A stretch of DNA of 64,000 bases from an uncultured Methanolobus sp. GTDB taxonomy: Archaea; Halobacteriota; Methanosarcinia; Methanosarcinales; Methanosarcinaceae. Below the pieces are notes generated by a model. That model searched no databases. It was given only the letters and a program-made list of their open reading frames with translations, and was not told the DNA's origin. The stretch spans positions 96,001 to 160,000 of the forward strand of contig OY776215.1 of assembly GCA_963675495.1 (NCBI GenBank), written 5' to 3'. The translations under genes were made by a program, and so were the position numbers. Shown piece by piece: positions 53,716 to 61,147 of this stretch (within the stretch, counting starts at the first letter, position 1; each line of letters opens with the position of its first letter).

Positions 53716-53919
53716 TCACAGTTTGTTTTCTTTGATTTTCAAGAGATAAGTCCTGGCTCCGTTAGAAACAGCTTGCTCCCGGATGATAAGTTCATCATCC
53801 AAAAGCTTCGATACAACTCGGGAGCATTTACGACTGTCTATATCAAGCAGTTTTCATAGTTCATTCTGGAAAATACCTTCTTTACTATCTCGAATAATAT
53901 TAAATGCGTCTTCCTTGAT
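53716..53919 (-). repeat. Inverted diverged copy of the 5' part of the TFE-beta-like gene (~30614-30805)
   Basis: Identical runs such as TCCCGAGTTGTATCGAAGCTTTTGGATGATGAA and CCGGGAGCAAGCTGTTTCTAACGGAGCCAGGACTTA. Confidence 0.92.
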
Positions 53920-55667
53920 GGCATCACTTACTTCTTCTGATTTTGGAATTTTGCTAATATTGGATAGTGGCAATTTAACTATTGGTGAAACAATGAGCAA
54001 TTTGTCATAGTCTAACTCATCTAAAGAATATATTTTAGCATTTTCTGAATTGAAAGATTCGTCTATGTTAAAACATCCGTACTTTAAAAGTTCAATTAAT
54101 TTTGTTTGTTCTGACCAATATGTCAACTTAGAATTATCTTTTATTCCTTCTATTGTAGACTGTTGATTTAAGGCGATTTTTTGTAAATAATGGAACAATG
54201 CTTTGTTTGAAGCAAGATGAGTTATTAATAATGGCCATTTTATACTTATAGCAATAAACTTGGCAAGTTTTTTTGTATTCCATCTTTTTTCAATTGTCGC
54301 TTTTTTATTATAAACAAATAAGTTTGTTTCCATTGATATATACAATTTAAGCCGGAGTAAATTAATGAACTGTTTTAAACGTCGTGGGTTATTGTCTAAA
54401 GCATCAGAAACCATACTAATTAATTCTGTGAATGAGTTATCTTCTTCTCCAGTTTCTATTTTTTCACAAGCTAATAAATCTTTAAACTCTTCGTCTAGTA
54501 TTCTATTAGAACTTTTATTAATTTCCTCATAATCATCTTCATCCAATTGATTTGCTTTTGGACTTGTTTTTTCATCAGGTAAACAACTATTAAGTTTATC
54601 AAGAAATTCTGTTATGCTTTTTTCATCAGGTTGCGGTACTAAAAATGGGATTTGAATAAATTTCTCTATAAATTCGAAACCATATTCTAAACCTTTTAAC
54701 GAAAGATTGCTGGTATTTGCAGATTCGGTTATAGAATTATTTGGATAAAGGTATGGTAGCAATTTTTCATTTTTAGCTGCAATACCTGCAGCTATTTTAG
54801 TTCTATCCATTCCTATTATGAAAATTAGATTTGGACTATCATCTATTAACATGTTTATTGCACGCATTAATTCAACAGCTTTTGGAATGTCACAACGATC
54901 CAAATCATCTATAAAAATGTAAACTCTTGAATTATCAGAATAAGCAGATACTATGTTAGCAAAATCATGATGAAGTTTTTGAATAAACTCTGTATGGATT
55001 TCATAATCAGGCGATGTTAAACATTTATTTAGATCAACTTCCATAGATGTATCAAAAAAGTTCCGAATAGTATCACTGAATGAAATAATAATTCCCAAAG
55101 ATGCAATGATACCTATTAAAGTCGTAAATAACGTTTTATCACTTAATGCATCACTAATTGCTTTAACTAAATTTTGAATAGAGAATGAATATTGTGATAA
55201 GAACAGAATTATCACAATGATGATACTAGCTAAAGAAAGTAAAAAAATTGAAACTCTTATTATTTCGAAAATGAATTTTTTAAGTTAAGTCTTAATCGCA
55301 GCAATCTAAAATACCCTTTTAAACGTCCTTTGTTTGATGTTTTTTCGGACAGTTGTGATATCAAATCTGAAATGAAGGTTGCCCAGAGTGCTTCTGCTTT
55401 ATCATGTCTCCATGCATTAAAATGTACAATTTTTCCATTTTTATCTTCAATTTTATCTTCTAGTTGTAGAATAAAAGAAGATTTGCCACTTCCCCATTCT
55501 CCTTCAATGGACATAGTAACGGGTGGATTTGTATTTTTATTTGTAAGGAAATCTACGATTGCCTTAACATACGGCTTGAAACCTAGTAGATCTTCTCTTG
55601 TAGCTAAATCATTAATATTCGAAGGCGATATTTTGGTAGTATTTAATTTATTCAACAATTTCACCAT
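53716..55667 (-). pseudogene. KAP-family P-loop NTPase with TM insert and C-terminal wHTH; frameshift near 55265 and TGA at 53854-53856
   Basis: GEWGSGKS, FNAW, IDDLDRC, FIEKFIQIPF, NPRRLKQFIN; AT-rich. Confidence 0.85.
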
Positions 55668-55816
55668 GATGATTGATTATAAATTCAGCCTAACTATTTT
55701 TAAAATGCAATTCTCTTTTAAAAGTCTGTCGAAATTAAAAAGGATTAAATTGACTGGGTGATAGTCACATTCCTATACAATACCCTTAAATACCACTTCC
55801 ACCCTCCAATTAAATA

Positions 55817-55885
55817 ATGTCTTACCCTACCTCAACTCGCACTTTACGCAATGTGTCTGTAGTAGTGGTAGTGTTACACGCTTGA
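55817..55885 (+). CDS. Putative ilv leader peptide MSYPTSTRTLRNVSVVVVVLHA
   Basis: ATG ~25 nt after TATA-like CTTAAATA; GTG TCT GTA GTA GTG GTA GTG TTA run; upstream of acetolactate synthase. Confidence 0.75.
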   Translation: MSYPTSTRTLRNVSVVVVVLHA

Positions 55886-55930
55886 GCACGATAATCGGAA
55901 CTTTTCTGGCTCAAGTGCGCTGTTTTTGGT
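55838..55930 (+). promoter_or_regulatory. Putative attenuator: alternative pairings plus U-tract
   Basis: CGCTTGAGC (55879-87) with GCTCAAGTG (55909-17), versus CGCACTT (55838-44) with AAGTGCG (55913-19); then TGTTTTT. Confidence 0.65.
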
Positions 55931-55988
55931 TAATTTACTGATTAGTGTATCCTGTGTCGGAATTGTTTCTTTCCACGGAGAATTGAAA

Positions 55989-57719
55989 ATGGAAGAAATG
56001 AATGGAGCAGAGATCTTAGTTAAAAGTCTGGAGGACCTTGGGGTCAAACATATCTTTGGTTATACGGGAGCGGCAATACTCCCGGTATTCCATGCGCTTG
56101 AGCAGAGTGATATTGAGATCGTAGTCAATTCCAACGAGCAGTCATCGGCGTTCAGTGCAGCGGGGTATTCCCGGTCAAGCGGCGAGGTCGGTGTAGCCAT
56201 AGTCACATCCGGACCTGCAATTACCAACACACTCACTAGCGTTGCTGATGCTTTTGGTGACAGCATTCCTATGCTTGTTTTTGCAGGGCAGGTCCCCGAG
56301 CATAAGATAGGCACCGACTCTTTCCAGCACATCAATGTCAAGGGAGTCTTCGGGGATGCAGCCAAGAAGGTTATCCAGCTATCCAATGACGATGACATCG
56401 AAGCAATAATCAAGGACGCCTACTATTTTGCAATGTCTGGGAAACCAGGGCCTGTTGTCATAGATGTTCCTCTGGACAAACAGCAGAAGATGCATGAATA
56501 CCAGGATATGAACGTCCTGAGATTCGAGGAAAGTTACCACGATGACCGGCACCTATGCGAAGAACAATGTGAAGAGTTCTTCCAGATGTTCCTTAACTCC
56601 AAAAGACCGCTCCTCTATCTGGGTGGTGGTCTGAACTCAGAAGCAGGAAGTCATGCTATCAGGGAGTTCAATGAGTATTTCGGGGTTCCTTCAGTTAATA
56701 CTCTCATGGCAAAAGGTGTCGTTGACGAACGAAAAGACCTGAACCTCGGGATGCTGGGGATGTTTGGCACACCATCCGCTAATATGCTCATACAGGAGAA
56801 CGATTTCTTCTTCGCCATTGGTGTCCGCTGGGATGACAGGGTTGCGGAAAAGGTCGGGTTTGCAATAGGCACCGACATAGCCTACATCGATATAAATCCC
56901 GAGAAGATGCACCAGATAAAGATAGAACGAGGACCTAAATTCTCATTTATCGGGGATTCTGCCACAGCTATACGGGACCTGCTGAACTATGCTAAAAAGC
57001 ATAGCATCACATTGAATATCCATGATTGGCAGGAACGTGCCAGATTCCTGAAGAGGTCCTGGCCTCTGGATTACAACCGACAGTCCCAGCATATCCAATC
57101 AGCCGAGGTCATGGCACTGCTGGCAACTTATGTTGACGGGAACACAAGGATAACCACAGGTGTCGGCAATCACCAGATGCTGGCCGCACAGCACCTTCCA
57201 ATGCAGAAGGCAAAATCCTTCATGACCTCTGGCTCCTTTGGAACAATGGGCTTTTCCATGCCAACGTCCATCGGTGTTCACTATGCAAACCCGGATTCAA
57301 AGGTTATTGCCATCGATGGTGACGGCAGTCTTAGAATGAATCTGGGAGAACTGCACACTGTTGCTTCACTGGACCTGCCCATCAAGATACTCATGCTGAA
57401 CAACAGGAGTGACGGCATGGTTCAGAACCTGCAGGATGCGGCTTATGATGGAATTCGTACCGGAACACAAAGACCAAAGGATGTTCACTTTGCTGAGATC
57501 GCAAGTTCATTTGGCTTCAGTTATGCAGAAAGGATAAGCGACAGAAGTGATTTAAAAGCCGGTATGGAAGCCTTCCTTAATGCAGACGGACCTTGCTTCC
57601 TGGAAATCTGCACGGATAGGGAAGAAATTCTGTATCCAAAGGTTCCGGCAGGTGGAGCATATAAGGATATGATATTGGGGCCGTATATTAAGGAGGTACC
57701 CGGTAATAACATCGAGTGA
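55989..57719 (+). CDS. ilvB: Acetolactate synthase large subunit (ThDP enzyme)
   Basis: MNGAEILV, NEQ, TSGP, TDSFQ, GKPGPV, LGMLGMFG, GVGNHQM, GTMGF, GDGS-x24-NN; GGAGA RBS before ATG 55989. Confidence 0.88.
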   Translation: MEEMNGAEILVKSLEDLGVKHIFGYTGAAILPVFHALEQSDIEIVVNSNEQSSAFSAAGYSRSSGEVGVAIVTSGPAITNTLTSVADAFGDSIPMLVFAGQVPEHKIGTDSFQHINVKGVFGDAAKKVIQLSNDDDIEAIIKDAYYFAMSGKPGPVVIDVPLDKQQKMHEYQDMNVLRFEESYHDDRHLCEEQCEEFFQMFLNSKRPLLYLGGGLNSEAGSHAIREFNEYFGVPSVNTLMAKGVVDERKDLNLGMLGMFGTPSANMLIQENDFFFAIGVRWDDRVAEKVGFAIGTDIAYIDINPEKMHQIKIERGPKFSFIGDSATAIRDLLNYAKKHSITLNIHDWQERARFLKRSWPLDYNRQSQHIQSAEVMALLATYVDGNTRITTGVGNHQMLAAQHLPMQKAKSFMTSGSFGTMGFSMPTSIGVHYANPDSKVIAIDGDGSLRMNLGELHTVASLDLPIKILMLNNRSDGMVQNLQDAAYDGIRTGTQRPKDVHFAEIASSFGFSYAERISDRSDLKAGMEAFLNADGPCFLEICTDREEILYPKVPAGGAYKDMILGPYIKEVPGNNIE

Positions 57720-60331: not shown

Positions 60332-61147
60332 TTAGGAATTCATGATTTCAGGTGTGCCAGCGGATTCATCCACCGATCTCAGATAATTCTTAGCTGCATC
60401 TTTCTCTGCGTTTCTTTTACTGTTGCCTGATCCTGTTGCAAGTAACTCTTCATCCAGATAAAGCCCGACAGTATAGTGCTTATTGTGATCTGGTCCTTCC
60501 TCTCCTATAAGCTTATAACGCGGGCTCCCTGTTCCACTCTTATGGAAGAGCTCCTGTATCCTTCCCTTTGGATTGGAAACTGGTATTTTTTCAAGGGCAT
60601 CATCTATGTCAAAGAACCTGTAAACAAATTCCTTTGCTATTGAATAATTGTTATTGGAATTATTGTCTTTTTTGGCATGGCCACCATCAAGATAAATTGC
60701 TCCAATAAGTGCCTCGATTATATCCGAAAGCTTTCCGTCAATATTTACCAGCTCTTCAGACAATACAAACCTTGAGAGCTTGATTTTTTGGGCTACTGGT
60801 TTGAGGTTCTTGTTCGAAGCAAGCACTTCCCTGATCTTTGTGGAAACACCTTCGATTGTAAGTCCATTTGATCTTGCATACTCATCGATCTCTTCACTAT
60901 GGTATGCATACTCAGCAACTATAAGGCCCAGTACCGAATCTCCAAGGTATTCAAGTTTTTCGTAATCCTTGTTCTCAAGACCATTCACTTTTTTAAAAGC
61001 ACTCAGTTTATCCTTATTGCCACTAAAAAGTGAACCATGTAACAATGCCTGTATCAGGTATCTTGTATCATTGAACCTGAATTGTATGATTTCCTGGAAT
61101 TCCTCAAGTTCATTCTGATTCACACTCAGGTCTGGATTAACTCTCAC
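60332..61147 (-). CDS. rnc: Ribonuclease III with dsRBD
   Basis: YEKLEYLGDSVL, SDIIEALIGAIYLDGG, NPKGRIQE, GPDH, GSGNSKRNAEKDAA. Confidence 0.92.
   Translation of the reverse strand: MRVNPDLSVNQNELEEFQEIIQFRFNDTRYLIQALLHGSLFSGNKDKLSAFKKVNGLENKDYEKLEYLGDSVLGLIVAEYAYHSEEIDEYARSNGLTIEGVSTKIREVLASNKNLKPVAQKIKLSRFVLSEELVNIDGKLSDIIEALIGAIYLDGGHAKKDNNSNNNYSIAKEFVYRFFDIDDALEKIPVSNPKGRIQELFHKSGTGSPRYKLIGEEGPDHNKHYTVGLYLDEELLATGSGNSKRNAEKDAAKNYLRSVDESAGTPEIMNS

Follow-up and report, generated by a model that had tools for sequence, protein, structure and literature searches.

Leader-peptide attenuation is a textbook mechanism of gene control in bacteria, and it needs a ribosome close behind the polymerase and an RNA structure that steers termination. 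Archaea possess a eukaryote-like polymerase and eukaryote-like initiation factors and terminate transcription at U tracts with aCPSF1/FttA; hence, the regulatory use of transcription-translation coupling is at stake when such a leader is met in an archaeon. The question is raised here by a locus in a 64,000-nt stretch of DNA (the window, to whose coordinates all positions refer) from an uncultured Methanolobus sp., the genome of which matches the archaeal small-subunit (SSU) rRNA model with 1555 bits. On its forward strand, a short upstream open reading frame (uORF) with a run of valine codons precedes the gene of an acetohydroxyacid synthase (AHAS)-like enzyme. Comparison with its relatives strongly recommends this cassette as a candidate leader-peptide attenuator, which would be the first in Archaea.

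The leader uORF and the gene behind it

The alignable conservation of the locus starts at a TATA box, CTTAAATA (55785-55792), and is followed by a uORF of 22 codons, MSYPTSTRTLRNVSVVVVVLHA (55817-55885). The putative sensor codons (55853-55876) comprise a GTG at 55853, the five-Val run GTA GTA GTG GTA GTG (55859-55873) and the Leu codon TTA (55874-55876), and the stop codon TGA occupies 55883-55885. The first-pass annotation had described the TATA-like element and the 22-codon ORF with five consecutive Val codons and Leu, and both are present as stated. The motif TTAAATA lies 30-31 nt ahead of the uORF ATG in 40 of the 45 leaders measured. According to the text of the M. psychrophilus start-site study (PMC5378194), promoter elements or TATA boxes of that organism lie about 19-22 nt from the transcription start site (TSS), and 15.6-16% of its transcripts are leaderless. 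As the ATG opens 29-31 nt past the TATA box, the TSS probably falls at the uORF AUG or a few nt before it, and the uORF is probably leaderless or preceded by a 5' untranslated region of few nt. Metatranscriptome contigs of relatives from two runs span 55826/7-56011, though assembled contigs cannot show starts, ends or levels; one contig of 192 nt ends about 2 nt inside the uORF and another extends 255 nt further upstream, which is evidence in neither direction.

The predicted fold of the single leader sequence is unremarkable (z = -1.29, with 24 of 200 shuffles folding as well), and the case for the feature therefore rests on its relatives. The gene is carried by 23 of the 24 other Methanolobus genomes searched, and an ORF ending in a Val run precedes it at all 24 Methanolobus loci, that of the window included. 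The uORF ATG lies at -168 to -179 in 23 of these 24 loci, the remaining one (L010) having a displaced ATG only. A scan of named genomes of six genera recovered the uORF at 36 of 37 further loci, which belong to Methanococcoides, Methanosarcina, Methanomethylovorans, Methanohalophilus, Methanohalobium, other Methanosarcinaceae and one contig labelled Woesearchaeota. Over all distinct leaders, the uORF is intact in 49 of 51, i.e. 48 with an in-frame ATG and L049, which stops one codon early. The 205-nt leader shows a mean identity of 81% in 21 Methanolobus comparisons; the corresponding values are 66% for third codon positions within the gene and 34% for sequence farther upstream. Conservation of the uORF is thus beyond chance as judged from these alignments, indicating that the feature is real. 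In one leader from a Methanomethylovorans metagenome-assembled genome (MAG; L058:1266-1506), SVVAVVVVVVFA and both downstream hairpins (P1 and P2, described below) are kept without any in-frame ATG, GTG or TTG. A GGAG lies there a few nt ahead of an in-frame ATT, which may represent a non-canonical start led by a Shine-Dalgarno (SD) sequence, or else an assembly error.

The pattern of change within the uORF indicates that selection acts on its codons and not on the nucleotides alone, as evident from its three-nucleotide length steps, its synonymous Leu and Val codons, a recoded AT-rich clade and a decayed copy without a gene. The uORF falls into length classes of 66, 69, 72, 75, 78 and 81 nt, with one more leader of 84 nt from an upstream ATG; the non-coding spacer from its stop to the gene takes any length between 92 and 131 nt (e.g. 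92, 93, 96, 99-103, 111, 113, 123 and 131). Insertions in the uORF include extra Val codons, placed upstream of the core run in several lineages; the number of Val codons per uORF ranges from 5 to 9. The third codon before the stop is Leu in 44 of 48 leaders (CTA 21, TTA 13, CTG 6, CTC 4), and CTA and TTA are the two rarest Leu codons of the genome. Val codons over the uORFs are GTA (207), GTG (105), GTT (13) and GTC (4), as compared to genome usages of 0.29, 0.20, 0.34 and 0.18, respectively.

In an AT-rich metagenomic clade, the uORF reads MLNKHMSYSLNVVLLVVLVLVA and ends in NVVLLVVLVLVA. Its Val/Leu run is written with GTT, GTC, GTA and GTG together with TTA, CTT and TTG, i.e. all four Val and three Leu codons; hence, the amino-acid pattern outlasts the nucleotides. 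The contig labelled Woesearchaeota likewise keeps the Val/Leu codons in different nucleotides, and outside the run and the Ala-stop the residues of the uORF vary freely. The decayed copy (L091; G107:C1:3138500-3142100, minus strand, at about G107:C1:3141545-3141589) is a second one, 4.4 kb from the real leader of that genome. Forms of P1, of the U tract T1 and of part of P2 can still be made out in it, but the ATG and part of the run have been lost; the run now reads VFAVVVMLNA, with no AHAS-like gene behind it.

The putative regulated gene (55989-57719) encodes a stand-alone enzyme of 576 aa with three thiamine pyrophosphate (TPP)-enzyme Pfam domains, and its best solved relatives are catalytic subunits of anabolic AHAS (E = 1e-106). 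Databases name the product 'thiamine pyrophosphate-binding protein' or acetolactate synthase large subunit. The first-pass annotation had taken it as the acetolactate synthase gene ilvB; the start at 55989 and the AHAS-family homology stood, and the name ilvB did not, as the TIGR00118 score is 492 bits, under the cut-off of 538.35, the identity to the IlvB of the same genome is 34%, and no ilvN small-subunit gene was found among the neighbouring ORFs after it. A canonical cluster of leuA-like gene, ilvB and ilvN is located elsewhere in the genome, with an IlvB of 867 bits and an adjoining IlvN above its cut-off, and the 91-nt spacer before this ilvB holds no Val ORF. By its sequence, the 55989 gene is an AHAS-like paralog of predicted enzymatic function rather than the canonical ilvB.

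Exclusive helices and U tracts of the leader

Conservation of the helices was scored over 46 distinct leaders. Hairpin P1 (55879-55917) pairs a 5' arm, CGCTTGAGC (55879-55887), which holds the uORF stop, with a 3' arm, GCTCAAGTG (55909-55917), through 9 bp around an A-rich loop of variable length and sequence. After a 3-nt spacer (CGC, 55918-55920) comes the U tract T1, TGTTTTT (55921-55927), a candidate pause or termination site. The stem over the stop codon and the T run had been noticed earlier and are found as described, with one of the base pairs being G-U. P1 is paired in 96.9% of cells and is near-invariant, 5 of its 9 pairs never varying and one showing a compensatory change from G-C to A-U. 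Of 49 aligned leaders, 48 have 4-6 consecutive T at T1, the exception being L008 (TGTTGTT); divergent leaders have the tract as well.

P2 (55897-55969) is a long imperfect hairpin obtained with RNAalifold, the 5' strand of which includes the 3' arm of P1 and the apical part of which contains T1. Of its 27 pairs, 11 have changed on both sides in a total of 24 cells; 94.9% of cells are paired, and none of 500 shuffles scored as high, although the structure was derived from a subset of the same sequences as were scored, and slid controls give 36-48%. The segment common to both hairpins is GCUCAAGUG, and because the P1 3' arm sits in the P2 5' strand, P1 and P2 are mutually exclusive. The predicted energies are -14.6 kcal/mol for P1, which is transcribed first, and -25.3 kcal/mol for P2, which is made later. 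An alternative perfect pairing of 55838-55844 with 55913-55919 had been proposed as the competitor of the stop-codon stem. It exists in the window as 7 bp (CGCACTT/AAGTGCG), but is not conserved: over the 46 leaders it is 70.1% paired, no better than shuffles, of which 276 in 500 reach this value, and it was rejected as a conserved antiterminator; P2, with its strong covariation, is the real competitor.

P2 looks terminator-like in all genera: an A tract or A-rich sequence flanks it on the 5' side, its lower stem is GC-rich, and its U-rich tail leads straight to the SD of the gene. The tail, T2 (GTTTCTTTCC, 55965-55974), consists of the 3' base of P2 and an overhang and ends 2 nt before the SD, GGAG (55977-55980). 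T2 is U-rich across genera (GUUUCUUU, GGUUUUUC, AUUUCUUUUU, or U6 in the AT-rich clade); it pairs with the A tract of the P1 loop in Methanosarcina and other genera, and in Methanolobus it is more U-rich than pairing requires. The apical sequence of P2 is conserved well past the needs of a plain terminator. A simple terminator scan, which demands loops of 3-8 nt, returned no sites. The only gathering-score match of the window in Rfam is a tRNA, and three further matches at E up to 10 are at chance level.

A third hairpin, P0 (55827-55871), lies inside the uORF and joins CTACCTC (55827-55833), in its Thr-rich codons, to GTGGTAG (55865-55871), in its Val codons, with one U-U mismatch in the window. 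It was found by RNAalifold as the consensus pairing CUACCAC/GUGGUAG, is paired in 96.6% of cells with 2 pairs changed on both sides, and is equalled by 5 of 500 shuffles. This pairing would explain both the Thr-rich N-terminal half of the peptide and the near-invariant choice of GTA and GTG.

Control by sequestration of the ribosome-binding site is not supported, since the predicted accessibility of SD and AUG hardly differs among ribosome positions. For the 42 of 45 leaders that were folded (3 were skipped), the mean unpaired probability is 0.65 for the free RNA, 0.65 with the ribosome at the first Val codon, 0.61 at the last and 0.62 at the stop. A possible sequestering hairpin P3, of GUUUCUUUC with GGAAGAAAU at the first codons of the gene, was dropped as a main component on the same ground. 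Those first codons, ATG GAA GAA ATG (55989-56000; A3 columns 98-110), hardly vary among the aligned leaders of the different genera, not even in their wobble bases, and they complement GUUUCUUUC in the base of P2.

Modes of control weighed

Ribosome-mediated sensing of Val, and perhaps of Leu, probably operates at this leader in some form, as its comparative features suggest. Translation of the uORF, the TSS, the identity of the terminating hairpin, the part played by T1 and the direction of the response are what we infer within this framework, and the wiring put forward below is accordingly tentative and could well be otherwise. Transcription would start at the uORF AUG itself or no more than a few nt ahead of it, and a ribosome would translate the 22-codon leader as the polymerase transcribes the rest. 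With Val- and Leu-tRNA plentiful, the ribosome would reach the UGA and, because the stop codon lies in the 5' arm of P1, mask this arm; the 3' arm would then pair downstream and complete P2, and P2 with its A-rich 5' flank and its U-rich tail before the SD would terminate transcription, leaving the gene OFF. When charged tRNA is scarce, the ribosome would stall in the Val/Leu run upstream of P1, and P1, being free, would form as soon as it is transcribed, withhold half of P2 as an antiterminator and permit read-through, so that the gene is ON in Val/Leu shortage. T1, placed just after P1, would serve as a timing pause.

This assignment of roles, with P1 as antiterminator and P2 as terminator, appears more likely than that of the first-pass annotation, in which P1 was the terminator. 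The weaker P1 is made first and the stronger P2 later, and the antiterminator and terminator of trp follow the same energy order. The repeated addition of Val codons upstream also fits a starvation signal in which the ribosome fails to reach P1 in time.

Several observations weigh against the proposed wiring. T2 of Methanolobus is only U3CU3, and T1, a better archaeal U tract, follows P1, as expected if P1 were the terminator. The mapped 3' ends of M. mazei, as given in the text of PMC13675443, lie at U-rich tracts with little evidence for a required hairpin; hence, termination at P2 by way of its hairpin can only be proposed for this lineage. Thermodynamic models conflict on the balance of P1 and P2, the minimum-free-energy structure favouring P2 and the ensemble P1. 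In some clades, the Val/Leu codons run up to P1 (LVA-stop), which weakens the wiring since a ribosome stalled there masks P1 like a terminating one. As P0 does not overlap P1, the absence of translation predicts the ON state, unlike in trp. The start codon is absent from its usual place in two of the 51 leaders (L010 and L058), and the AHAS activity of the downstream homologue is predicted by sequence only. A scan for cognate-codon uORFs before other operons, which the first-pass annotation had pointed to, found no second such leader in this genome. It covered intergenic ORFs with ATG starts and at least 4 of 6 identical residues under a crude gene mask, and gave 262 candidates, mostly L, I, F or K runs in AT-rich spacers; the genes downstream of 10 picked candidates were checked and none was cognate.

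Some of these points would be accommodated if P1 and T1 formed the terminator and the ribosome occluded P1 directly. A ribosome on the last Val/Leu codons would then cover the P1 5' arm and allow read-through past T1, after which P2 would lock this state by hiding the U tracts, and a ribosome that has finished would leave, so that P1 forms and the transcript ends near 55927. The Val run ends 5 nt before P1, and Val/Leu codons reach the second codon before the stop in four divergent clades. Folding constrained by an A site on the fifth Val codon or on the stop yields P2 and not P1, and the pairing of T2 with the A tract within P2 could hide T2 from a U-tract-binding factor. The conserved T1 run is a suitable site, U tracts being the archaeal termination signal in the texts of PMC13675443 and PMC8716108. 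Several points make this reading unlikely. As a ribosome reaches about 12-13 nt beyond its A site, P1 would be masked by stalls at the Leu codon and the final one or two Val codons, but not by stalls farther upstream. Stalls at upstream Val codons would cause termination in severe starvation, yet it is upstream Val codons that have been repeatedly added. A ribosome at the stop also masks P1, which makes the OFF state dependent on very fast release, and the 3' strand of P2 is made after T1 and so cannot decide the outcome there.

The stop codon inside the P1 5' arm could also serve the inverse logic, resembling that of pyrBI/pyrE, where fast decoding of Val brings the ribosome to the stop to block P1/T1, so that the gene is ON with plentiful Val and OFF in starvation. 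The product would then be a Val-insensitive AHAS, as expected from the lack of a regulatory subunit, rescuing Ile and Leu synthesis when Val shuts down IlvBN, and the paralog does lack ilvN in a genome with canonical ilvB-ilvN elsewhere. The distance from the last sense codon to T1 (about 41-46 nt) is near the ribosome-polymerase coupling distances of bacteria, and the upstream Val codons would suit a delay line. This reading leaves P2 without a role despite its strong covariation, and every characterised leader known to us with a cognate-codon run before a biosynthetic-type gene turns ON in starvation; it is considered improbable.

Two further explanations dispense with sensing by the ribosome. 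If P2 and its apical region were a riboswitch or protein-binding site and the small ORF an untranslated by-product, the apical conservation in excess of a plain terminator would be accounted for, as would the Val-run nucleotides GTAGTAGTGGTAGT, whose wobble bases hardly change in most genera and which form P0 with the Thr codons. Such an RNA-only regulator is quite improbable, since indels keep the frame only inside the ORF, Leu varies synonymously, the AT-rich clade and the Woesearchaeota-labelled contig retain Val/Leu codons in other nucleotides, the ATG-TATA distance is fixed, and no Rfam family matches. A functional hydrophobic micropeptide, co-expressed as a partner or modulator of the enzyme, for example, rather than as a sensor, would be in keeping with the conserved hydrophobic C-terminal Val/Leu stretch and with the strict linkage of ORF and gene. 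It is the least credible of the explanations and very improbable, because residues are free to vary except in the run and in the Ala-stop, which P1 fixes, pairing with the Val codons accounts for the Thr-rich half, leaders differ in having anything from 5 to 9 Val in the run, and a stop codon within a switch helix is what leader peptides typically show.

Attenuation by starvation-dependent stalling thus keeps its place as the preferred reading. As for the leaderless-uORF attenuation suggested by the first-pass annotation, the conserved Val(/Leu) uORF, the exclusive structures and the U tracts upstream of an AHAS-family gene have held, and its alternative pairing and ilvB label have been given up.

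Origin, known systems and meaning

The paralog is present in 62 of 177 Methanosarcinaceae genomes, and a search of 16 genomes that represent the order's other families did not find it. A strict P1+T1 pattern occurs in 54 of the 177, with no match for a reversed-pattern control, and its matches all lie 60-130 nt upstream of the paralog, bar two extra copies (G024 and G107); the remaining 8 paralog-bearing genomes have variant leaders in which the uORF is still present. Outside this group, the nearest relatives of the 55989 protein are 60-70% identical to it and are encoded by MAGs with the labels Omnitrophota, Planctomycetota, Woesearchaeota and Nanoarchaeota. Of 80 metagenome loci returned, the 43 with at least 320 nt upstream were examined, and loci at least 67% identical to the protein of the window were taken as archaeal-type. 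The Val/Leu uORF precedes the gene in 12 of 12 archaeal-type loci, and neither it nor a transferred bacterial leader was found in any of the 31 bacterial-type relatives. An ORF reading VSIVVVSVL in two loci (L114 and L116) was rejected as a bacterial leader; as a hairpin with a T run follows it, it is probably the end of the upstream gene.

In a protein tree of 19 leader-bearing and 16 leaderless chosen representatives and the genome's own IlvB (some 30 leader-bearing and 15 leaderless loci being omitted), the leader label needs a single change, with branch supports of 76/97 and agreement of 200 of 200 bootstrap trees. The single change and the absence of the uORF from the 31 bacterial-type loci indicate, by sequence comparison, that the leader is a property of the archaeal clade, in which it accompanies the gene, and that it was not brought by a bacterial gene. 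The paralog proteins of Methanococcoides alaskense (L046) and a Methanolobus (L021) are sisters in this tree, on branches of 0.06 and 0.012, respectively. With the gene in only 62 of the 177 genomes of the family, the cassette of gene and leader seems to pass from genus to genus.

The overall account that is considered likely is that of the first amino-acid-sensing archaeal attenuator, in which a leaderless Val/Leu uORF would report tRNA charging by the position of the ribosome and so choose between two RNA folds that decide read-through by the polymerase. The device would have arisen inside Archaea, as the bacterial-type relatives of the gene are without it, and would have spread as a cassette among Methanosarcinaceae genera.

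Comparison with known systems brings out several likenesses. In the enterobacterial leaders trpL, ivbL, ilvL, hisL and leuL, the cognate-codon run ends 2-4 codons before the stop, where a ribosome covers the antiterminator's 5' arm. Their terminators are more stable than the antiterminators and are made later, and the leu leader has rare sensor codons. The Methanolobus leader resembles them in the run near the stop, the maskable arm of the putative antiterminator, the predicted energy order and the rare sensor codons. The enterobacterial leaders have an SD and a 5' untranslated region, and their region 1 sensor codons pair with region 2, so that no translation means termination; in Methanolobus, in contrast, the sensor codons pair with upstream Thr codons in P0, the default would be read-through, and the machinery is archaeal. 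In pyrBI/pyrE and tnaC of E. coli, the leader ORF ends at or inside the terminator region and a close or terminating ribosome blocks termination; these systems sense UTP or free Trp rather than tRNA charging through a codon run and are relevant only to the inverse logic.

The closest known system is the ilvBNC attenuator of C. glutamicum, whose leader peptide is Val-rich. According to the text of PMC11857589, this peptide starts one nt from the TSS without a ribosome-binding site, upstream of an AHAS gene, and three hairpins act as anti-antiterminator, antiterminator and terminator, the latter two overlapping. In Methanolobus, too, a probably leaderless ORF precedes an AHAS-like gene. That of C. 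glutamicum differs in its bacterial polymerase and intrinsic termination and in controlling a canonical ilvBNC operon, not a stand-alone paralog; its H1 competes with H2 as described there, whereas P0 and P1 of Methanolobus do not overlap, and no sequence similarity was seen between the two leaders. Leaderless polycysteine sORFs (small ORFs) of mycobacteria are also described, in the text of 10.1101/834739, as a one-residue run at which a stalled ribosome changes the mRNA structure and controls downstream biosynthetic genes. Those act translationally by sequestering the ribosome-binding site and form a regulon of several loci, whereas for the Methanolobus leader the predicted accessibility does not support such sequestration, and there is one locus per genome.

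Full-text searches of the literature found no archaeal leader-peptide attenuator, in agreement with the first-pass annotation, which knew of no established case. In their main texts, the M. mazei Ribo-seq and H. volcanii small-proteome papers mention uORFs in general terms only, and both 'attenuat' and 'leader peptide' are absent from the text of a 2026 termination review. Nor is the gene or attenuation mentioned in the M. psychrophilus TSS paper (PMC5378194), supplements aside.

Some neighbouring features deserve mention. Two adjacent minus-strand ORFs (53854-55215 and 55260-55667) correspond to consecutive stretches of a single profile, that of a KAP-family P-loop NTPase (positions 96-287 and 1-86, respectively); the gene next to the leader promoter on its upstream side looks split or broken. 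At 60332-61147 on the minus strand lies a bacterial-type RNase III with the Pfam domains Ribonuclease_3 and dsrm (TIGR02191, 141 bits, below the cut-off of 166), which is unusual for archaea and could affect the processing of structured leaders. Outside the window, in the same genome, two tandem near-identical minus-strand ORFs, MLVYVRSLVV(F/L)LLLLRC (L075:1609-1662 and 1751-1804, equal to G000:C1:477944-477997 and 478086-478139), precede a multi-haem cytochrome gene by 45 and 187 nt as a repeated leader-like unit.

If the proposed attenuation holds, transcription-translation coupling would be used for gene regulation in methanogens, and the cassette, if confirmed, would be the first leader-peptide attenuator in Archaea. 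At about 175 nt the locus is compact, and its natural variants and the precise predictions it allows make it well suited to testing; it bears on hairpin-sensitive termination or pausing by the archaeal polymerase, on leaderless translation as a sensor and on regulatory coupling. It also points to an uncharacterised clade of AHAS-like enzymes, common to Methanosarcinaceae and Omnitrophota/Planctomycetota-type bacteria, that is tied to branched-chain amino-acid supply.

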